The notes beneath the pieces are model-generated. The model searched no databases, was not told the DNA's origin, and was given only the letters and a program-made list of their open reading frames with translations. The translations under genes were made by a program, and so were the position numbers. 64,000 nt of DNA from a virus (lineage: Duplodnaviria > Caudoviricetes), in IMG/VR virus record IMGVR_UViG_3300025413_001239, one strand, 5' to 3'. This document shows positions 14,411-53,438 of the stretch, piece by piece (the first letter of the stretch is position 1; every line of letters starts with the position of its first letter).

Positions 14411-16360
14411 ATGATTAAAATAAATGATGTGATAGAAGGAAAAATAAGCGTTAACCATAGTGGTTCCGCTTATTTGGTTAGTGAGCAATCACCAAAGGAT
14501 ATTTATGTTCATAAAAACAATATTAATAAAGCATTTCATTTGGATGTTGTTAAGATTAAAATAGTTAATGGTCGTGGTCGTGAACTTGAAGGTGTCGTTA
14601 CTGAGATAGTTAAAAGATTCAGAGACGAATTTGTTGGTAGTATTCAAATATCAAAAAAACATGCATTCTTTATACCAGATAGTAACAAGATGCCGATAGA
14701 TTTCTTTATACCTCTAACAAAATTAAAAGGTGCTAAAGATGCTCAAAAAGTTGTTGTTAAATTAACATCTTGGAAAGATAACAGTAAAAACCCTAATGGT
14801 GAAGTTATAAAGATTCTAGGTGAAGCTGGTGATAATGAAGTAGAAATTCACTCAATACTCCATGAGTATGATTTACCCTATGACTTTGAACCTGACATTT
14901 TGGCTGAAGCTGAGGCGATATCGAGTGAGATAAGACAGTCTGACATAGATGCTCGTAGAGATATGAGGGATGTACTTACTTTTACAATTGACCCAGTAGA
15001 TGCCAAGGATTTCGATGATGCTTTATCAGTACAATGGGTTAATGGTCAACTTGAAGTTGGTGTTCATATTGCCGATGTATCACATTATTTAAGACCAGAT
15101 ACGGACTTAGATAAAGAAGCTTATCGTAGAGGTACCAGTGTTTACTTAGTTGATAGAGTTGTACCAATGCTTCCAGAAAGGCTTTCTAATGGCTTATGTA
15201 GTCTTAGACCACATGAAGAGAAGTTGTGTTTTTCAGCGATATTTACGCTTGACCAAAATGCAACAATTGTAAATGAATGGTTTGGAAGAACAATTATTAA
15301 TTCTGACCATAGGTTTACATATGAAGGAGCCCAAGAAATAATTGAAGGTAAACCACATTTCTATGAGTCTGATGAACTTGATGTTAATGGTGGATATGTT
15401 AAAACGCTTGGTGGTATGATAAAAGATGCGGTATTAGCTCTTGATAAGTATGCTAAAAAGCTTAGAAAGCAAAGACTTGGTGAAGGTTCAATTACTTTCG
15501 ATAAGCAAGAAATAAGATTCAAATTGGATGAAAACAACAAGCCAGTTGACCTTATATTCAAGATAGCTAAAGACTCAAATCAATTGATTGAAGAATTCAT
15601 GCTTTTAGCGAATAGAAGGGTTGCTTATTTGTTAAATCACAATGATTACCCAGATATCAATCGTGTGCATGAGGAACCAAGTCAAGAAAAGCTTTTAGCA
15701 TTAAAGCAATTTATTAAGCAATTTGGTTATGATATTAAGGTAAATACACCTGAGGAAATAACTTTATCACTTAACAAATTACTTGCTAGTGTTAAGGGTA
15801 AAGCTGAAGAAAACATAGTTTCTAACCTTGTGGTTAGGTCAATGCAGAAAGCGGCTTATTCTACAAAGAACTTAGGTCATTATGGTCTTGGATTTGAAGA
15901 TTACGCTCATTTCACCAGTCCAATTAGAAGATATCCAGACGTAATGGTGCACAGACTTCTAGGACGCTATTTAGAGGCTAAAGCAGCCCCTAAATTAGAT
16001 AAGTTGGAGTCAAGGTGCCAATACTTATCTGAACGTGAAAGAAAGGCTCAAAAAGCTGAAAGAGATAGCATCAAGTATATGCAATGCATATATATGAGTG
16101 AAAGAATTGGTAATGTTTATAAAGGACTTATCACTTCGGTTACTGATTATGGTATGTTTATAACAATTTGTGAAAATAATTGTGAGGTATTGGTAAAATT
16201 AACATCAATCAATGGAACTTGGTTGGTGGATTTAAAAAAATATCAAATAGTTGAATTTGACACTAAAGAAAAAATAAGATTAGGTGATTATGTTCATGTA
16301 GTTATTACTAAAGTTGATGTTGAAAAAAAGAATATTGATGCATCAATTATGCTTCTCTAA
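14411..16360 (+). CDS. rnr: ribonuclease R
   Basis: TIDPVDAKDFDDALS, HFTSPIRRYPD, CSD and S1 domains. Confidence 0.95.
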   Translation: MIKINDVIEGKISVNHSGSAYLVSEQSPKDIYVHKNNINKAFHLDVVKIKIVNGRGRELEGVVTEIVKRFRDEFVGSIQISKKHAFFIPDSNKMPIDFFIPLTKLKGAKDAQKVVVKLTSWKDNSKNPNGEVIKILGEAGDNEVEIHSILHEYDLPYDFEPDILAEAEAISSEIRQSDIDARRDMRDVLTFTIDPVDAKDFDDALSVQWVNGQLEVGVHIADVSHYLRPDTDLDKEAYRRGTSVYLVDRVVPMLPERLSNGLCSLRPHEEKLCFSAIFTLDQNATIVNEWFGRTIINSDHRFTYEGAQEIIEGKPHFYESDELDVNGGYVKTLGGMIKDAVLALDKYAKKLRKQRLGEGSITFDKQEIRFKLDENNKPVDLIFKIAKDSNQLIEEFMLLANRRVAYLLNHNDYPDINRVHEEPSQEKLLALKQFIKQFGYDIKVNTPEEITLSLNKLLASVKGKAEENIVSNLVVRSMQKAAYSTKNLGHYGLGFEDYAHFTSPIRRYPDVMVHRLLGRYLEAKAAPKLDKLESRCQYLSERERKAQKAERDSIKYMQCIYMSERIGNVYKGLITSVTDYGMFITICENNCEVLVKLTSINGTWLVDLKKYQIVEFDTKEKIRLGDYVHVVITKVDVEKKNIDASIMLL

Positions 16361-25527: not shown

Positions 25528-25755
25528 GTAAACAAATTAGTAAAGAACCTTGGAATACTACATATTTTTCACTTTTTTAATATATTCTTAAACAATATAA
25601 AATTTTAAAAAATAACATTAGAATGTCCTAAGCTTTTAATTTTTTAATTAATTCATTAGTTAATGTTATTGATATTATTTTTTTCATATCTTTATTATAA
25701 TAAAAATATTTTGCAAAGTCAATTAAATTATTTATCTTTGTTTAAATTTAAAATT

Positions 25756-26694
25756 ATGAATAGAATTGGGTATTGTTGTATTTCACTTGGGATAAACATA
25801 AACCGTAGTAAAAAAAATCATATTACAGTTAATCGTGGTATGGTTAAGAAAACATTTATCGAAAAAGGAATTAAATATGCATCAGAATTGGCATACTTAA
25901 ACTTATGTGATTTACTGGAAATTTTAAAATACAACGTAAGAAAAAATATATATGTTTATCGGTTATCTAGTGACCTATTTCCTTGGATGTCAGAATACCA
26001 ATTACAAGATTTACCGAATATCAAATCAATCAAGAGTAAGTTGATAGAAATCGGTAATTTTATTAAAAAATATGATATTAGAACAGGGGCGCACCCAGGC
26101 CCGTTTAACGTTTTAGCAAGTGAAAATCAATCAGTTGTTACTAAGACAATATTTGAATTGAATCAACATGCTGAACTTATGGACTTGATGGGACTGGATA
26201 AATCACACTATTACCCTATCAATATTCATATCAATACAACTAAGCCAACTAGAGAATTGGCAGCTGCGCGTTTCGTTGAGAATTTTAAGCTTTTGTCTGA
26301 TTCATGTAAGGCTAGGCTTACTGTTGAGAATGATGATAGTCCTAATCAGTATTCAGTTAAAATACTACATGACTTAGTGCATGTTCAAACTGGCATACCG
26401 ATTGTATTTGACCAACATCATTTCAATTATGGTCAACAGGACCAAACTATGGAAGATGCGTTAAAATTAGCACATTCTACTTGGACTGTGAAGCCATTGA
26501 CACACATGAGTTCTTCTAAGACCTTAGAGGATTCTAAGGGTGTAGCAACAGCACACGCTGATTACATATATGAAAAAATCCAAACTTTTGGTTTGGATTT
26601 TGATATTGAGATTGAGGCTAAAGCTAAAGACTTAGCCGTATTGAAATACATCAATGAGTTTACTTCAAAGTTAGAAGATACTTTAGTTGATTAA
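25756..26694 (+). CDS. uvsE: UV-damage endonuclease
   Basis: RIGYCC, YRLSSDLFPW, HPGPFNVLAS, VENDD, FDQHH, IEAKAKDLA. Confidence 0.9.
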   Translation: MNRIGYCCISLGININRSKKNHITVNRGMVKKTFIEKGIKYASELAYLNLCDLLEILKYNVRKNIYVYRLSSDLFPWMSEYQLQDLPNIKSIKSKLIEIGNFIKKYDIRTGAHPGPFNVLASENQSVVTKTIFELNQHAELMDLMGLDKSHYYPINIHINTTKPTRELAAARFVENFKLLSDSCKARLTVENDDSPNQYSVKILHDLVHVQTGIPIVFDQHHFNYGQQDQTMEDALKLAHSTWTVKPLTHMSSSKTLEDSKGVATAHADYIYEKIQTFGLDFDIEIEAKAKDLAVLKYINEFTSKLEDTLVD

Positions 26695-31212: not shown

Positions 31213-33030
31213 ATGGGTAGTATTTTGAAAGTCAAGAATTTGACAACATTAGCAGAAGGTGTAATCGTATTCGTAGGATTGGCCGTAATTTTAACAGGTG
31301 TTTATTTCTTTGCGCCAGGTCTTCGAGTTTCGGGGTCAAAAGTCCTAAGTGGATTAAAGATTGGAAGTGAAAACATCGACAACGCTGGGGTAGCGGAGAA
31401 GATTAGTTTACCTTCAAAAGATGTATCAACAAAAGTAACAAGCAAGCCACTTAAGCGTATTGCTGAGTATGGTTGGAACGCAAACGCTGGTATGATTGTA
31501 GCAAATGGTGGTCCTCGTACAACTAAGGGTTCTATTTTAGAAGGTCTTGGTGAAAATATCGAAATCGTTAAGATTGACGGTGTATCAGATTTGCGTAACA
31601 TGCAAGTAAGCTTTGTAGAAGAACTTAATTCAGGTAACGAAAATCCAGTAGGTGAAAAATCAGCGTTTGCTGTATCTATTATGGGTGATGGTGCCGTATT
31701 TTATGCAACCACACTTCAAGCAGAATTGGATAATAAATTTGGTAATGGTAAGTATCATGCACAAATAATTGGTGGTTATGGTTTATCATTTGGTGAGGAT
31801 AAAGTTATCGGTCCAAGAATTTGGAAGGATAATCCTAAATCAATGGAAGGTGCTGTACTTAGTTCTGTAATCGGTGACGGTGACTGGGTTATTGCAATTA
31901 ACTATTGCTTCGCAAACGGTTTAAAGGTTAATACAGATGCAACAACTTACGATGCACACGCCGTAAACTTTTTACCTAGTGAAAATGATGATTACATTAA
32001 TTCTGTTAAGGAACTTATTAAATCTCAAAAAAGTGGTTATACCGTATCATTGAAAGAAGTAGTTGATGGCAAATTGACAGGTAAAACTGTAAATAGAAAA
32101 ATTGACGGTGCTACTACATGGACCCCAGGTGACAAATTGGCATTCGAGAGTCTTTCTGGATTCACTGATGTAGTTTCTACTAGAGATTTCAATAACCAAA
32201 TGTGTGCTGTAATGGTAACCATTAAGGAATATGCGCTTAAGCATGACAAAGAAGTGTCGAACATACTTAAAGCGGCATATGAAGGTGGTAATCAAATCAA
32301 GACAAGTGATGAATGGTTACATGCGGCTTCTGATGCGGTAGCTAAGACATACAACTTTGAAAATGGTAAGTACTGGTACGACATGTTTAAGGGTCAAAAA
32401 GGTACTAAAGAAGGTCTTGATTATAGTGTTGGTGGTAGTAAGGTGTTTAACTATGCTGATGCTTTGCAATACTTTGGTATCTCTGATGGTGTTAATCGTT
32501 ATAAATCAGTATATGACCAAATCTCTAAATACTTAGTTGAGTTAAATCCATGTGATTTCAATAAGACATGTAAATCTGGTCCATTAGCTTATGATGATGC
32601 TGTTAATTTGTACTTCTTGAAGTCTATTAATGATGTTCATACAGGTAAAAAGGATAGTGTTAGTTATGCTGAAAATAAGACAACTGTAATGGCTGATGGT
32701 AACTGGAAGATAAACTTTGCAACTGGTAGTTCAACTATTAGTGAATCATCTTCAAAGGACTTAGAAACAATTTACAACTTATTAATTCAAGCTGAAAATA
32801 CTAAACTTAAGATTATTGGCCACACCGATAATGTAGGAAATCCAGATGCTAATTTGACATTGTCTAAGGGTCGTGCAAATTCAGTAGCACAATACTTGAA
32901 AGATAAAGGGGTTCCATCTGAAAGGTTCCAATTAGTGGATGGTGCTGGTGATACACAACCTGTAGCTGATAATAGCACCGCTGCTGGTAAAAGTAAGAAT
33001 CGCAGGACTGAAATTCAATTATTAAAATAA
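31213..33030 (+). CDS. membrane-anchored substrate-binding-like protein with C-terminal OmpA peptidoglycan-binding domain
   Basis: N-terminal TM; INFATGS, IGHTDNVG, NLTLSKGRANSV, NRRTEI. Confidence 0.85.
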   Translation: MGSILKVKNLTTLAEGVIVFVGLAVILTGVYFFAPGLRVSGSKVLSGLKIGSENIDNAGVAEKISLPSKDVSTKVTSKPLKRIAEYGWNANAGMIVANGGPRTTKGSILEGLGENIEIVKIDGVSDLRNMQVSFVEELNSGNENPVGEKSAFAVSIMGDGAVFYATTLQAELDNKFGNGKYHAQIIGGYGLSFGEDKVIGPRIWKDNPKSMEGAVLSSVIGDGDWVIAINYCFANGLKVNTDATTYDAHAVNFLPSENDDYINSVKELIKSQKSGYTVSLKEVVDGKLTGKTVNRKIDGATTWTPGDKLAFESLSGFTDVVSTRDFNNQMCAVMVTIKEYALKHDKEVSNILKAAYEGGNQIKTSDEWLHAASDAVAKTYNFENGKYWYDMFKGQKGTKEGLDYSVGGSKVFNYADALQYFGISDGVNRYKSVYDQISKYLVELNPCDFNKTCKSGPLAYDDAVNLYFLKSINDVHTGKKDSVSYAENKTTVMADGNWKINFATGSSTISESSSKDLETIYNLLIQAENTKLKIIGHTDNVGNPDANLTLSKGRANSVAQYLKDKGVPSERFQLVDGAGDTQPVADNSTAAGKSKNRRTEIQLLK

Positions 33031-37934: not shown

Positions 37935-38005
37935 GGTTCTATAGCTCAACGGCAGAGCTGGACTCTCTAAAAGTCTTGATGTTGGTTCGATTCCGACTAG
38001 AATCA
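37935..38005 (+). tRNA. amber-suppressor tRNA (anticodon CTA)
   Basis: ggttcta/tagaatc acceptor; agct D-stem; ggact-ctCTAaa-agtct; gttgg-TTCGATT-ccgac; own TATATTTGC promoter. Confidence 0.85.
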
Positions 38006-38053
38006 CACTTTACATTTTTTAACAATTATTGTATATTTATAAAAAAAAGAAAT

Positions 38054-39382: not shown

Positions 39383-39471
39383 ATTAAAGGGAGAAGAAAT
39401 TCTCCTTTTTTATTTGGTAGTGTTAAGTAAATACCATATATTTGCATTTTATTAAACATAAAATTATACGC

Positions 39472-41442
39472 ATGAAAAATTTACTTACATTGATTTGCTT
39501 ATTAGTAACATTTCAATTAATCGCACAAGACACAATTAAGTCAAAGACTCTAGAACCAATACAAATTACTTGTGTTAGGGCTGATAAGAAAATCCCAGTA
39601 ACACAAAAAACGCTCTCCGATTCGGCTATTCAAGCGAATTATCAGGGTCAAGAAATACCTATGTTGTTAGGTTCTCAAACATCAATTTACACGAATTGTG
39701 ATGGTGGTCATAACGCTGGTTATAGTTACTTTAGCATCAGGGGTATTGACCAAACAAGAATAAACATAACTCTTAATGGTGTTCCATTGAATGAAGGTGA
39801 AGACATGGCTTGTTATACGTCTAATTATCCAAGTTTTACCAGCGCAATTCAATCTATGCAAATTCAACGTGGTGTGGGTACATCATCTAACGGCGCATCA
39901 TCCTTCGGTGGCTCATTGAACTTTCAAAGCAAGGATGGCCTTATTAAGGGTACTGATATTCAAATAGGTGGTGGTTCATTTAATACATCAAGATTTGACA
40001 TATCCACATCCACAGGTTTATCCAAACACAAATTAGCCTTATTCGCTAATATTGGTGGTATACAAACTGATGGCTTTAGAGATAATTCAGGTTGTAAGGG
40101 TGGTTCCGCTTTTGTGAGTCTTGGTTACTTCGGGAAGTCTAGTATTACAAAACTTAACCTATTAACAGGAATATCACAAAACAAACAAGCTTGGATGGGT
40201 TCAAGTGATTCAGCATTAGCAGCTAATTATCGTGATAACCCAAGAGGTGGTGATAATATGGATAATTTCAATCAAACGAATGTTCAATTGCAGAACATAA
40301 CAATGTTTAATACACGGTTTAAATTAACCAGCACTGCGTTTTATAATTACTTAGATGGTCACTATAATGTGTTTAACTTAAAGGATATACCAGTTAATAA
40401 TTATTTTGCATACGAAAGCCAGTATTCACGATGGATTGGTGCGGTAACTCAATTAGATTATAACTATGGTGATTTTAAGGTTACTTCAAGCCTTTCAGCC
40501 AGTACTTATACGAGGTTCCATAATGGTTATGAGATTTACGATACAACACTTACTGAATATCCCTATACTAATAGTGGTAAAAAGAATGATGCAAATGCAT
40601 TCATAAAGTTTAGTTATGACACTAAAAGAGTCTTGTATTATATCGACTTACAAGAAAGATTTGTTGATTATAAGTACTCTGGTGATACAAGTGTTTATCA
40701 AAGCTGGAAGTTCTTTAACCCAAAGGCTGGTGTTAAGTTCTTCATAAACAAGAGTTTGGATGTGTATTGGAGCGTAGGTTTATCTCATAGAGAACCAACA
40801 CACTCAATAATGCTTAATGGTTGGTTGTACTTAAACTCTTATAATCCGATTACAATAGTTAAGCCTGAGGAAGTAATTGATAATGAAATAGGTGTAAATT
40901 ACACGTCAAGTAAACTAAAATTACAAGCTAATGTTTATGTAATGAAATTTACGAATGAAATGATAGCTGCTGGGCCGATGGGTAATAACAGTCTTCCTAT
41001 TATGATGAATGTTCCTAATAGTCTAAGATATGGCTTCGAATTTGATTGTACTTATAAAGTAAATAAGTCGTTTACTTATGATATTAATTCAACATTATCT
41101 AATGGTCAGTTTAAAGTTGATAGCGGTACGTATAGCTACTTATTTAATCCAAATTTTATGTTTAAGCATTCGATTAACTATACACATAATAAGTTATTTG
41201 TAAGCCTTAATCAAGCATATATTTCAAGAGTTTACATTGATAAGGCTAATCAATTTACTTTGCCAATATCATCTACAATCGGTTTGAATCTTGGATATAC
41301 CTTTGGTCGTTATCAAGTATCAATTCAGGGTAACAATTTAACAGGTGAGAAGACTTATAGCAATGGTTCAGTTACTGGTGTTAGGTATAGAATACCTAAC
41401 GCTTTACAAAATTACTTCATAACCCTTAAAATACACTTATGA
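39472..41442 (+). CDS. TonB-dependent receptor
   Basis: signal peptide, plug motifs (SIRG, RINITLNGVPLN, IQRGVGTSSNG..SFGGSLN), beta-barrel, C-terminal YFITLKIHL. Confidence 0.9.
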   Translation: MKNLLTLICLLVTFQLIAQDTIKSKTLEPIQITCVRADKKIPVTQKTLSDSAIQANYQGQEIPMLLGSQTSIYTNCDGGHNAGYSYFSIRGIDQTRINITLNGVPLNEGEDMACYTSNYPSFTSAIQSMQIQRGVGTSSNGASSFGGSLNFQSKDGLIKGTDIQIGGGSFNTSRFDISTSTGLSKHKLALFANIGGIQTDGFRDNSGCKGGSAFVSLGYFGKSSITKLNLLTGISQNKQAWMGSSDSALAANYRDNPRGGDNMDNFNQTNVQLQNITMFNTRFKLTSTAFYNYLDGHYNVFNLKDIPVNNYFAYESQYSRWIGAVTQLDYNYGDFKVTSSLSASTYTRFHNGYEIYDTTLTEYPYTNSGKKNDANAFIKFSYDTKRVLYYIDLQERFVDYKYSGDTSVYQSWKFFNPKAGVKFFINKSLDVYWSVGLSHREPTHSIMLNGWLYLNSYNPITIVKPEEVIDNEIGVNYTSSKLKLQANVYVMKFTNEMIAAGPMGNNSLPIMMNVPNSLRYGFEFDCTYKVNKSFTYDINSTLSNGQFKVDSGTYSYLFNPNFMFKHSINYTHNKLFVSLNQAYISRVYIDKANQFTLPISSTIGLNLGYTFGRYQVSIQGNNLTGEKTYSNGSVTGVRYRIPNALQNYFITLKIHL

Positions 41443-42958: not shown

Positions 42959-44194
42959 TTAAATAACAATTAAATCGTTATTTATTTGATTACGGACATT
43001 ATTGTTCATAATCACACTAGTGTAATCCAGTGGCTTTGTCATTGAAGCAAGGTGATTGTCGTAATATCTTTTCATTATGTTGATAGCTGAGTTTAAATCT
43101 CTATCTATTTCGACATTATCACTTAGTTTAACAGTTCTATCCTTTAACTCAACTTTATCTTTAAATAGCTTACCAGTAAGACTATTCAATTGAGTGGTGT
43201 ATTTTTCATCAATCTTAATTAAATCACATTGTTTATTTTGTGACTTATACTTAAGAAATTCTAAGAACATATTAATATTAGATTCATTAAATGATTTTCT
43301 AATACCCTTTTTATTCTTATTTACTCCTTCTGTTGACATAAGGGTTTTTACTGTTAAATCGCCAACTACAATTGTTTTGTAGTTCATATTCACTAATTTT
43401 TTACTCTGAATATGTAGAGTTTGTTTAATTTGACTATTCTTCTTATTATATAGTTTTCTTTTAACTTTATTTAATTTATTAAAGGATTTACTATTCTTTT
43501 GTTTTTTGCTTAACTTAGACTTAATCTTATTAATCTGTTTACCGAAGTACTGATTAATCCTCTTTGATTTATTTTTAAGAATAACAACGGTACCATTGTT
43601 ATCCACACCAGTACCTAAATTCTTTAGACCTAAATCAATAGCGAGTACTCTTGATTTAATTATTAAATCATCTGAGTAGTTTATTTTATCATCGACAACA
43701 ATATCACAAAGCCACTTATTATTAATAAATTTGACTCTAATTTCTTTAATATTTAATTCAGATAAGTTTGTTAAATGACTTGAATATTTAAAATTAATTT
43801 TATTTATTGAAATTATACTATTTTCTTTGAATATCCAACCATTTAGGTTAAAAACTAATGTATGATACTTTCCGAGTTCTTTTGTCTTTGGTGGTCTAGC
43901 TGTATTATCTTTTTTAATAAGTGTGAAGAAAGATTGGTATGATTGAAATATTTCAGCTGCCACAACTTGTGCTGCTTTTGCATTAAATTGTTTCCAAGAT
44001 TCCTTGGTTGAATATTTCAATGGTGGAATGAGGTTAATTAAATCAAACTTTGAGTATACCTTTTTAGTTGATTCATAGTGTTTTTGCTGAATATCAATAA
44101 GAGTGTTCCAAATATCCATACGAATATCAGACAACTGTTTTAGTTGAGATACCTGTTCTGTTGTTGGGTGTAACCTTATTGAGTATGTTTTCAT
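42959..44194 (-). mobile_element. tnpB: IS200/IS605-type TnpB RNA-guided nuclease without TnpA, rearranged-RuvC type
   Basis: KTYSIRLHPT; AIDLG; VVGDL; IDEKYTTQ; DRDLNSAINI. Confidence 0.85.
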
Positions 44195-46128: not shown

Positions 46129-47271
46129 ATGATAGATAAAATTGGTATTAGATATACGTTTAAGATTTCGGTACCACTAGATGTTTTAAAGATAAAAGAA
46201 GTTTTTACTAAGAATGGTCATCAACTATTTCTAGTTGGTGGTTGTATTCGTGATACCATATTAAATGTAACACCTAAAGATTTTGATTTAGTTACAAATG
46301 TTTCGCCAGAAGAGGTTATTAGAATTTTAAAGCATGAAAAGTTTGTTACAACAATATTAGAAACTGGAAAATCATTTGGTGTTATTAATGTTATAACTAG
46401 CGATAATGAATTTGAAATTGCTACGATGCGCAATGATGTGTTTAGTGATACACCAAATGGGAGGCATCCAGACCGTGTTATCTTTGGTGATATTTTTACT
46501 GATTGTATGCGAAGGGATTATACCATGAATGCGCTTTTTTATGACTTAGATACTAATGAAATAATTGACTTCGTTAATGGTGTTAATGATATTGAAAAAT
46601 CTTTAATTAAGGCGGTTGGGAATCCAGAAGAAAGATTTAAAGAAGATAAATTACGCAAACTTAGGGGCGTTAGGCTGGCGGCCAGATTTGGCTCTGAATT
46701 GGACCCTGAGATTGATGCCGCATTAAAAAGAGATGCCAGTCTGGAAGGTATATCTGGTGAAAGAATCAGAGATGAGTTTATAAAGGGTATCAAATCAGCT
46801 AAGTCAGTTGTTAAATTCTTGGAAATGCTTGATAGGTATCATTTATTTAATTGGATATTTAAGGGCTTACATGTAAATAAAGACTTTATTGAGGATAGAA
46901 ATGTTGTAGTTCTTATTGCTATTTTATTAAAGGGTAACAACATAGGTGTTATAGCTAAGCAATTGAACAATCTTAAGTATTCTGTTGATGAGATTAAATC
47001 AATCACATTCTTATTGAGTTTATTGCATTTAACACCTGAGACAGCAGTTGCTTTAAAGAGACAACAAAAGAACGCTTACACATCAAATCATCAAATAATT
47101 GATTTTGCTAACCGTGAAGGTTTAAATACAAGATTGATACATGCGTTTTTAAATTTTGAGTTGACCGTTACTGGCGAAGAAGTTATGCAAAAGTTCAATT
47201 TGAAGCAAGGCAAAGAGTTAGGTGATATGATAAATAAATTGGAATTGGATAATTTTAAAAAAAGTTTGTAA
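46129..47271 (+). CDS. cca: CCA-adding tRNA nucleotidyltransferase
   Basis: LVGGCIRD, KDFDLVT, RRDYTMNA, EDKLRKLRGVR, SGERIRDE. Confidence 0.9.
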   Translation: MIDKIGIRYTFKISVPLDVLKIKEVFTKNGHQLFLVGGCIRDTILNVTPKDFDLVTNVSPEEVIRILKHEKFVTTILETGKSFGVINVITSDNEFEIATMRNDVFSDTPNGRHPDRVIFGDIFTDCMRRDYTMNALFYDLDTNEIIDFVNGVNDIEKSLIKAVGNPEERFKEDKLRKLRGVRLAARFGSELDPEIDAALKRDASLEGISGERIRDEFIKGIKSAKSVVKFLEMLDRYHLFNWIFKGLHVNKDFIEDRNVVVLIAILLKGNNIGVIAKQLNNLKYSVDEIKSITFLLSLLHLTPETAVALKRQQKNAYTSNHQIIDFANREGLNTRLIHAFLNFELTVTGEEVMQKFNLKQGKELGDMINKLELDNFKKSL

Positions 47272-49206: not shown

Positions 49207-49275
49207 AAAACTTTAAAAAAGATTTGTCTAATTCAAAATAACCACGTATATTTGCACTTCAAATAGCTAATAAAG

Positions 49276-50568
49276 ATGAAGTGTATTAAAACAAGGAAAA
49301 TTCAGTTGTTGCCATTAGGTGATTTTAATGAAACCTACAAATACGTTAATAATTTAAGTTCAGGCTTAGCGTCACTCGGTAATGAAATGATAAGGAGACA
49401 TGTTTTATCATTTTATGAAATGGACGTACTAAAAGATTCAACTCCAGATGCTAAAACTAGAACTAATCTAATGAAGGAAAAATACGGAATGTCACTCCAA
49501 AATATGGGTTATGATGTTTCAAAAAAGTATTCAGCCACAATTCCTTCGAATATTCGCACAACATTTAATCAAAAGGTCTTTAAAAAAATAAAAGACAGTT
49601 ATTTTGGTATTTCAATAAATAAAGAATCTATACCATCATTCAGAAAAGACTCAATGGCAATTCCATTTAGTTATGATAATAATATCAGTTTGAACGAATT
49701 TGGGGTGTATGATTTTAAATTCTTTAATAATGTCAATTTTAAATTAAACTTTGGACGTGATAGGTCTAATAATAAAGTTATCATTGACAGAATTTTATCT
49801 AATGAATATAAGCCATTATCTTCACATATAAAAATTGATAAGAAAAAAATATTCTTAGATTTAACATATTCTTTTGACTCAGATGAAAATGTTAACATAT
49901 CTAAAGATAAAATTGTTGGTGTTGATTTAGGTATAAATAGACCTATGACAATTGCTAGGGAAGATGGTACTTATGCAAAACAAATAGAAATCGGTGGTAA
50001 GATTCAATACTCTAGATTATCAATTCAAAAACAAAGAAGAAGCTTACAAAGTGCTTTAAGGCATTCATCTGGTGGTCATGGTACTGGTAAAAAAATAGCT
50101 AAATTAAAATCATTAAAAGATTATGAACATAATTTCATGAAAACCACTAATGATACACTAAGTCGTGAATTAATAAAATATTGCGTTAATGAAGGTGTTG
50201 GTGTAATTAAATTAGAAAATCTAACTGGTATAACAGAAAATGCTAATAATTTTCTTAAGTCTTGGTCTTATTATCAATTACAACAAATGATTGAGTATAA
50301 AGCTGCTGAATTTGGAATTACAGTATTATATGTTAATCCTAGATATACCTCTCAAACTTGTCCAACTTGTGGCAATATTGATAAAACTCAAAGAGATTCA
50401 AAGGATAAAACAAAATTTGCTTGTTCAAATGAAATTTGTTCTGATATTAATATAAATAAAGATGCTGATATTATTGGTGCCTTTAATATCTCAAAAAGAG
50501 ATGGTGTTATCGCTTCTAAAAAAATATTACAAGAAAAAAGTGATAAAAAGTTGTTAGTTTCAGAATAA
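49276..50568 (+). CDS. cas12f: type V-F Cas12f-like RNA-guided nuclease (430 aa)
   Basis: RuvC D217 (GVDLG), E314 (KLENL), D398 (DADI); CPTC zinc finger; GGHG and W-YYQLQQMIEYKA motifs resemble AsCas12f1; abuts tracr and array. Confidence 0.85.
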   Translation: MKCIKTRKIQLLPLGDFNETYKYVNNLSSGLASLGNEMIRRHVLSFYEMDVLKDSTPDAKTRTNLMKEKYGMSLQNMGYDVSKKYSATIPSNIRTTFNQKVFKKIKDSYFGISINKESIPSFRKDSMAIPFSYDNNISLNEFGVYDFKFFNNVNFKLNFGRDRSNNKVIIDRILSNEYKPLSSHIKIDKKKIFLDLTYSFDSDENVNISKDKIVGVDLGINRPMTIAREDGTYAKQIEIGGKIQYSRLSIQKQRRSLQSALRHSSGGHGTGKKIAKLKSLKDYEHNFMKTTNDTLSRELIKYCVNEGVGVIKLENLTGITENANNFLKSWSYYQLQQMIEYKAAEFGITVLYVNPRYTSQTCPTCGNIDKTQRDSKDKTKFACSNEICSDININKDADIIGAFNISKRDGVIASKKILQEKSDKKLLVSE

Positions 50569-50589
50569 GTTCGTATATTTGCATAAATA

Positions 50590-50769: not shown

Positions 50770-51398
50770 GGTGTTAATGACCCTAATTTGAAAGGTATAA
50801 ACAACTAACGCTTGCAATGCAGTTCAGGTAGTGTTGGTGTTAATGACCCTAATTTGAAAGGTATAAACAACAGTATTATATAATTGTTGTTGCATTTGAT
50901 GGTGTTAATGACCCTAATTTGAAAGGTATAAACAACAGAGGTGTTCTAGCTTGACTTCACTAATATGGTGTTAATGACCCTAATTTGAAAGGTATAAACA
51001 ACGGACTGGCATCGTTAATGGTTGCTGGTCACGGTGTTAATGACCCTAATTTGAAAGGTATAAACAACAAAACTTTAATAGACCACTCTTAGGGTCTAGG
51101 TGTTAATAACCCTAATTTGAAAGGTATAAACAACCATAATATTATTTTTAATTCACCGCAATGTGGTGTTAATGACCCTAATTTGAAAGGTATAAACAAC
51201 GGGTTGAGTTAACTGGTCTGTTATTGTCATGGTGTTAATGACCCTAATTTGAAAGGTATAAACAACGAAACTGAACGTTTACTAAAAGACAAAGAAGGTG
51301 TTAATGACCCTAATTTGAAAGGTATAAACAACGAGACTGAACATTTACTAAAAGACAAGGAAGGTGTTAATGACCCTAATTTGAAAGGTATAAACAAC
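50770..51398 (+). CRISPR. CRISPR array: 10 x 36-bp repeat GGTGTTAATGACCCTAATTTGAAAGGTATAAACAAC, 9 spacers (8 x 30 nt, 1 x 29 nt)
   Basis: repeats start at 50770, 50836, 50901, 50967, 51033, 51099 (one G>A), 51165, 51231, 51297, 51363. Confidence 0.98.
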
Positions 51399-51443: not shown

Positions 51444-51531
51444 AAAAAACTTGACAATTCAAAATAAGTTTGTATATTTGCATTGTAATTAAAAAATTTT
51501 ACACTTTTTAAAAAAGTGACATATTTATAAC
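51444..51531 (+). promoter_or_regulatory. promoter of tRNA cluster 2 (TATATTTGC and TATTTATA boxes)
   Basis: 21-nt identity with 4093-4113. Confidence 0.7.
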
Positions 51532-52586: not shown

Positions 52587-52672
52587 GCTATGGTCGACTA
52601 GTGGCTCAGGTCGCATCCCTTTCAAGGATGTGGGGAGAAATCCCCTCACGGGTTCGAATCCCGTCCATAGTA
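52587..52672 (+). tRNA. tRNA-Glu(TTC) with long variable arm
   Basis: gctatgg/ccatagt acceptor; catcc-ctTTCaa-ggatg; gggga-gaaa-tcccc extra arm. Confidence 0.8.
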
Positions 52673-52994
52673 CAAATGTTTTAGTTATGATTAAGCGAAC
52701 AATTAGTGGTAGTTTTACTAATATGGTAAAACCTGACCCAAGTGTTATGAAAGATAGTGATTTTGATTTGTTATCGTTCTGATAGAACACTGGTTGTATT
52801 CACAATATGTAAGAGCGCATATACCAATTGCTGCTTTATGGGACAGAAAAGTTGAGGGGAAAGTTCGATTCTTTCGAAGGACACATTATTAACAAGTTAA
52901 AAAAAATGAGCGCAATGAAACAGCTGGACGCAATGTCACCAATCAGATAAGAGAAGAAAGAAAGGTTCTGATTGGTACGAGACAAACACGAAAA

Positions 52995-53387: not shown

Positions 53388-53438
53388 TATTTGGTAATAT
53401 CAAATAAAATCGTATATTTGCACTCTAAATTATAACAC

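Follow-up and report, generated by a model that had tools for sequence, protein, structure and literature searches.

The last two spacers of a phage-borne CRISPR array, spacers 8 and 9, are shown by comparison with natural genes to be two putative Cas12f guides for one and the same 30-bp site, which lies in a Fic-family gene of about 349 amino acids known from freshwater Bacteroidota and from their prophages. It is very probable that both derive from the codons of this site that read ETE(R/H)LLKDKE. As for how the pair arose, a tandem duplication followed by divergence, either neutral or selected, has about an even chance of being the right account. The DNA analysed is a stretch of 64 kb, referred to below as the window, and the features on which the argument rests are the following.

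49276-50568, + strand: Cas12f (type V-F) effector gene, 430 aa, identified by Pfam, PDB and NCBIfam matches
50770-51398, + strand: CRISPR array of 10 repeats of 36 nt and nine spacers, identified by repeat analysis
51231-51266, + strand: repeat 8, identical to the consensus
51267-51296, + strand: spacer 8, corresponding to the coding strand of the Fic-gene codons ETERLLKDKE
51297-51332, + strand: repeat 9, identical to the consensus
51333-51362, + strand: spacer 9, encoding ETEHLLKDKE, with the same site and register as spacer 8
51363-51398, + strand: repeat 10, the final repeat, identical to the consensus

The array is situated downstream of the Cas12f gene and has the make-up of a type V-F array, with direct repeats (nine of the ten identical, repeat 6 with a single G>A change) and unique spacers of similar length (30 nt in eight of the nine, 29 nt in spacer 2). 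The 430-aa ORF matches Pfam Cas12f1-like_TNB (6e-19) and also OrfB_IS605, NCBIfam guided_TnpB (2.5e-50) and, as its best PDB matches, Cas12f 9nzo/9nzr (1e-51) and AsCas12f 8j12/7wju (1e-41). Its translation contains the RuvC motifs GVDLG, KLENL and DADIIGA together with a CxxC...CxxxxC zinc finger, and a small RuvC/zinc-finger TNB protein encoded beside an array points to a type V-F effector. In size and domains the effector resembles AsCas12f1 and Un1Cas12f1 (PDB 8j12, 7wju, 7l48, 9nzo), and the locus shares with type V-F Cas12f systems the 36-nt repeats ending in ...ACAAC, the repeat-then-spacer orientation of the crRNA and, judging by the homologous natural sites, the T-rich 5' flank of the target. 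It differs from these systems in being phage-borne and in that no adaptation module was found in the 64-kb window, where neither the ORFs flanking the array nor the 10 Cas1-sized ORFs contain Cas1, Cas2 or Cas4 domains. Searches for the array repeat that tolerated up to three mismatches returned nothing from IMG/VR and nothing from 68 genomes belonging to the best-matching host family. An identical Cas12f is present on seven contigs (P0001), the longest of 343 kb, and one relative (P0002) is 83% identical. A TnpB-like ORF of 411 aa (42959-44194, - strand), with HTH_OrfB_IS605, OrfB_IS605 and TNB domains, lies around 5 kb upstream of the Cas12f gene. Furthermore, a motif, ...TCAAAATAAGTTCGTATATTTGCA, is repeated at 49233-49256, 50560-50583, 51459-51482 and 53399-53422, where it precedes the Cas12f gene, the tracr/array region, the tRNA block and one later gene, respectively. 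It ends in a TAnnTTTG -7 box of the Bacteroidota type, which would suit a Bacteroidota host.

Judging by its gene content, the window appears to be a fragment of a huge phage: its 11 tRNA genes include a candidate suppressor with a CUA anticodon, and it encodes sigma-70, GIY-YIG homing endonucleases, RNase R, UvdE and a CCA-adding enzyme. Among the genes that are host-like are those for RNase R (14411-16360), UvdE (25663-26694), an OmpA-domain protein (31213-33030), a TonB-receptor plug-domain protein (39442-41442) and the enzyme of the CCA-adding/poly(A) polymerase family (46129-47271). The tRNA with the CUA anticodon (37935-38006, + strand) is a tRNA-Pyl according to ARAGORN and an ordinary one according to Rfam, and is a candidate amber suppressor of the phage; a tRNA-Glu(UUC) at 52587-52673 (+ strand) reaches 87 nt, well beyond the usual length of a class I tRNA. 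Huge phages are known to carry arrays that are devoid of adaptation genes and are aimed at genes of the host or at rival phages (Al-Shayeb et al. 2020, PMC7162821), and it is established that phage arrays can target bacterial genes (PMC7162821). The present locus is similar to those arrays in its compact array of 10 repeats, its class 2 type V effector, the lack of any detected Cas1, Cas2 or Cas4, the roughly 343-kb phage with many tRNAs and the spacers that match bacterial or prophage genes. It is unlike them in its target, which is of the Fic family, whereas transcription and translation genes were highlighted there, and in devoting two of its nine spacers to variants for one site.

Spacers 8 and 9 share 27 of their 30 nt, and all three differences are transitions: A (51269) in spacer 8 against G (51335) in spacer 9 at spacer position 3, G (51277) against A (51343) at position 11, and A (51293) against G (51359) at position 27. 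In frame 1, the first and the last of these changes are silent (GAA/GAG and AAA/AAG), and the middle one exchanges Arg for His (CGT/CAT). The next most alike pair of spacers in the array shares 14 of 30 positions, and when up to three mismatches were allowed, the 64-kb window yielded only the copies in spacers 8 and 9, with 0 expected in shuffles. The likeness is real and not a product of chance, and the two units are spaced by exactly 66 nt, with clean junctions. The array analysis therefore upholds the sequence-only reading of this DNA in so far as it had described adjacent near-copies, 3 nt apart in 30, with two of the three differences at synonymous third positions. The codon-position ("wobble") pattern proves nothing alone and carries no weight here; at least two of three random changes land on third positions with P = 0.26. 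No near-duplicate spacers were found in the arrays beside the distant Cas12f relatives L001-L003.

In order to identify the target, the spacers were compared with several collections. Exact searches and searches degenerate at the three variable sites returned nothing from IMG/VR and only chance-level matches (E >= 0.2) from cultured phages, and no exact protospacer for spacer 8 or 9 was found in IMG/VR, JGI metagenomes, GTDB genomes, cultured phages or plasmids. The window's own array is absent from the JGI collection, indicating that the source community is not covered there; because this community lies outside the collections searched, the missing exact protospacers are weak evidence. A wobble-degenerate pattern, in which transitions were allowed at each third position and at position 11 (around 49 bits), had zero matches in IMG/VR, one in the JGI metagenomes (L004) and one in GTDB (L005, from the Bacteroidetes MAG RH-14apr17-211). 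Both matches fall within homologous Fic genes, in the identical frame and at identical residue positions, with the context ...SWKSSQIEGNTYSLL-ETERLLKDKE-(T/A)A.GK...; in the target context, ...SSQIEGNTYSLL is followed by ETERLLKDKE and then by TA.... The proposal that the spacers derive from coding DNA in the frame ETERLLKDKE/ETEHLLKDKE thus gains support from natural Fic genes that independently share this frame. A chance resemblance, in which the spacers would not come from the Fic gene and the matches would be coincidental, has a minute probability: it can point to the lack of any exact match (the best is 28/30), but the sole matches to a pattern of about 49 bits in two collections are homologous genes with the same frame and residues, nine additional homologous sites were then found, and a reversed control pattern with up to three mismatches gave one match in 401 genomes and one match in 68 genomes, so that the L004 and L005 matches, with the alignment of the alleles, effectively refute it.

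There is no Fic homologue within the 64-kb window, and self-targeting within these 64 kb is excluded for this reason. Regarding the other spacers, the leading 22 nt of spacer 1 and of spacer 4 have no match in IMG/VR, and BLAST of the whole array against the family of the MAG (G001) gave no convincing match for any of them. A 29-nt match of window positions 50883-50911 (from the last part of spacer 2 into repeat 3), with 26 of 29 positions shared with a conserved site in four genomes of this family (G001:C77:712-740, G441:C218, G455:C35 and G412:C54), was rejected as a chance match because it crosses the spacer-repeat border.

The target proteins of L004 and L005 have 346-349 aa and match the Fic/DOC family (PF02661, 1e-12 to 5e-14). 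The protospacer codons lie directly downstream of the (S/T)xxxE(G/N) inhibitory motif (SxxxEGN), and the SSQIEGN of the target aligns with TVAIEGN of human FICD; the Fic domain and the inhibitory motif together place the gene in the Fic/DOC family. Judged by its aligned members, the target family lacks the catalytic HxFx(D/E)GNGRxxR of Fic/DOC proteins: the motif Q[PA]FxDGNKRxxR is found in 198 of 201 close homologues and in 110 of the 114 diverse homologues with a readable motif. HPFxDGNGRxxR is thus replaced by Q[PA]FxDGNKRxxR with retention of SxxxEGN (L005:1208-2254, - strand; homologues P0121-P0481), and this very abundant Bacteroidota Fic-like family probably does not AMPylate canonically. 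The Fic family is huge, with at least 8000 database proteins sharing words with the 61-residue target region, and the named members belong to Chitinophagaceae, Sediminibacterium, Saprospirales, Flavobacteriales and Ferruginibacter. By these matches, the target gene is widespread and very common on Bacteroidota chromosomes, and it occurs also on prophage-like contigs.

The surroundings of the Fic gene differ among its carriers. The MAG has it in an ordinary chromosomal setting, adjoining a HipA N/C toxin pair. On L004 and L027 it is a few genes away from genes for a ClpP-type head maturation protease and from tape-measure-like genes, and hence on prophage-like DNA. In these two unrelated samples (L004:2342-8053 and L027:6917-11571), Fic lies within a few kb of the ClpP-type protease gene, which suggests a Bacteroidota prophage family with Fic as cargo. 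The "rival" from which the sequence-only reading had derived the spacers may be the host chromosome rather than a virus. SoFic is a Fic-domain defence acting by abortive infection (10.1101/2022.05.11.491447; PMC12249575). The target protein matches the PADLOC SoFic model (4e-15 to 9e-18) and PDC-S04 candidate models, no better than it matches a generic Fic domain, and the SoFic match is restricted to the Fic core. It is like SoFic in matching that model and in adjoining toxin genes or being a prophage moron. It is unlike SoFic in its generic-Fic level of score, in having Gln in place of the catalytic His and in its N-terminal wHTH domain. Because of the generic level of the match and the replaced catalytic His, a defence role of the targeted Fic gene is only a lead.

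Pattern searches of Bacteroidota genomes and IMG/VR gave 11 natural alleles of the site in total, nine of them beyond L004 and L005. The closest is that of the lake Bacteroidetes MAG (G001:C55:17736-17765, - strand, which equals L005/L006), with 28/30 positions shared with spacer 8 and 27/30 with spacer 9; spacer 8 shares 27/30 with L017 and 25/30 with L004. The MAG allele has the otherwise rare T6 and C24 that are common to both spacers, and it combines G3, as in spacer 9, with G11 and A27, as in spacer 8, so that spacer 8, spacer 9 and this allele form a tight cluster of sequences 2-3 nt apart. Among the DNA alleles, G is present at position 3 in two of 11, at position 27 in one of 11 and at position 11 in all 11, and nine of the 55 pairs of natural alleles differ by 3 nt or less. 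Close homologues almost always have Arg at the Arg/His codon; in the family at large this residue varies, with Arg in 42 of 123 representatives and His in 0. A search with the His-consensus peptide identified three natural His proteins (P0391, P0470 and P0472) among about 230 close homologues, all of them with ETEHLLKEKE, that is, KEKE and not KDKE. No protein with the spacer-9 peptide ETEHLLKDKE was found in a search of 5.8 billion clusters seeded with it, where it would have ranked first, and the fully degenerate pattern of the His allele returned nothing from IMG/VR. The Arg pattern in IMG/VR led to two real Fic genes, L025 and L027, and to L026, which was discarded as a spurious peptide match. 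Searches with the His-type P0391 returned no homologue from cultured phages, and among plasmids the closest match, from Bacteroides, is 61% identical. Both alleles had been expected to exist beside the same PAM; the collections searched do not bear this out, as no exact protospacer was found there and the best matches, 28/30 and 27/30, belong to one single allele.

Related Cas12f enzymes use an NTTR or TTTR PAM. In nine of the 11 alleles NTTR stands directly 5' of the site, where it is provided by the pair of Leu codons just ahead. The T-rich 5' flank arises only in the + orientation, while the reverse orientation leads to a G/C-rich flank, and it fits, as far as the aligned alleles tell, a 5' PAM of the Cas12f type and the repeat-then-spacer orientation. 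In conservation the target site ranks 69th of the 1024 windows of 30 nt in the gene, within the top 7%, and the Fic gene offers 126 TTR sites.

Regarding the origin of the pair, the account that we favour is that one repeat-spacer unit would have been captured once and then duplicated in tandem, by slippage or by unequal crossing-over between identical repeats, after which the copies would have diverged by three transitions, either through decay of the redundant copy or through retuning toward a variant allele. Alternatively, there could have been two separate captures from two natural Fic alleles (of strains, paralogues or prophage copies) at the same conserved, PAM-flanked site, carried out by host Cas1-Cas2 in trans, in an ancestral bacterial locus or through recombination with another array, both spacers then being kept as they cover two variants (escape and re-targeting). 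The latter account holds a substantial minority share of our confidence.

The two copies are adjacent, in the same register and between identical repeats, which is the arrangement left by tandem duplications through repeat misalignment (SpacerPlacer, PMC11472070; Kupczok et al. 2015, PMC4524480). Identical register, length and adjacency come automatically with a tandem duplication, and register and adjacency fit it at least as well as they fit two captures. An independent second capture of the same site is rare a priori because the gene has 126 TTR sites, and a second use of one register among them, in the adjacent position, would require a hot spot or strong selection. The lack of Cas1, Cas2 and Cas4 in the neighbouring and Cas1-sized ORFs of the window and the absence of the repeat from IMG/VR and the 68 host-family genomes also favour duplication, and both weigh against two captures. 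The same is true of the failure to find an ETEHLLKDKE protein in the search seeded with it; that no collection searched holds an exact protospacer for either spacer likewise stands against two captures. In a survey of 24,090 spacers, 86% of repeated spacers were duplications, and reacquisitions and independent insertions made up about 1% each (PMC11472070), a dominance that again favours duplication. The positions of the changes point slightly in the same direction. At the sites that vary most in nature (6, 12, 15, 16 and 24) the two spacers are alike, and they differ at a nearly invariant one; a model of natural site variability explains the set {3, 11, 27} four times worse than uniform mutation does (likelihood ratio, LR, 0.25); for this reason the pattern slightly favours uniform mutation over allelic variation, and it counts against two captures, whose differences would have avoided the most variable sites.

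Other observations weaken the case for duplication and speak for two captures. The 60 nt of spacer contain three changes, whereas the three flanking repeats, 108 nt together, contain none (Fisher P=0.044); taken over all repeats, the count is one in 360 nt (P=0.01). This excess in the spacers counts against duplication, three changes being a high number for a duplicated unit if its repeats are not under strong constraint, and the mutation-free flanking repeats are what two captures would leave. Typical duplicates are identical or nearly so (PMC11472070, PMC4524480), unlike spacers 8 and 9, which differ at 10% of positions with unchanged flanking repeats. Bacterial spacers reportedly acquire point mutations at a far lower rate than they are turned over, which also weighs against duplication. 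All three spacer-9 states occur in natural alleles, positions 3 and 27 varying naturally and rare His alleles being present, and the 2-3 nt cluster of both spacers with the lake-MAG allele, which mixes the G3 of spacer 9 with the G11 and A27 of spacer 8, is what strain-level alleles would form; the nine natural pairs of 55 within 3 nt are consistent with this. In addition, selection could favour a conserved and PAM-flanked site repeatedly, and the 29-nt spacer 2 shows the ruler-type length variation that is typical of real acquisitions. The original interpretation, with independent acquisitions from two alleles or recombinational updating instead of a neutral duplication, is therefore upheld in part: the coding frame, the natural variation at positions 3 and 27, the rare His alleles and the T-rich 5' flank shared by the homologous sites agree with it. 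Its account of the origin is not established, as neither exact protospacers nor an ETEHLLKDKE protein was found in the collections searched and the position pattern (LR 0.25) does not favour allelic variation.

Within the duplication account, a more specific course, rather unlikely in our view, is that the adaptation-less phage array evolves its guides itself, a unit having been duplicated and point mutations having been selected in one copy, so that the Arg and His alleles were followed. It is very unlikely that the pair is an assembly artefact, in which strain variants of one polymorphic spacer were set side by side between identical repeats. The window does come from a metagenome-type assembly, its repeats are identical, and the presence of the identical Cas12f on seven contigs implies several assemblies or strains; against this, the 66-nt spacing is exact and the junctions are clean, the tandem order needs reads or k-mers that join spacer 8, a repeat and spacer 9, and assemblers usually collapse or break such bubbles and do not place them in tandem. 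The probability that remains beyond duplication, two captures and artefact falls to other causes.

Each of the two units is predicted to give rise to a crRNA directed at the template strand of the Fic gene. Guided by one or the other, Cas12f would bind the gene and cleave or silence it, whether the gene is carried by the host or by a prophage in the same cell. In Cas12f, the PAM-proximal positions of the guide are important and the working guide has roughly 20 nt. Because positions 3 and 11, at which they differ, are inside the PAM-proximal part, spacers 8 and 9 would probably recognise different alleles, and position 27 probably falls outside the working guide.

Arrays of huge phages without adaptation genes are known, and how they gain or update their guides, and what they target, is poorly documented. 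Fic as the target of a phage array appears to be a new detail, and near-identical neighbouring spacers are a known kind of feature. With the target family of two guides now identified, the locus offers a concrete and testable case of a phage Cas12f directed against an accessory gene of the host or of a prophage. If spacer 9 or spacer 8 is a decaying duplicate, the pair is a mere record of repeat slippage; if the twin guides are matched to alleles, they show a compact phage array widening its coverage of a variable target. Self-evolved guides, if true, would represent a CRISPR counter-defence against a Fic-type toxin or defence gene, with guide evolution that is free of adaptation genes.
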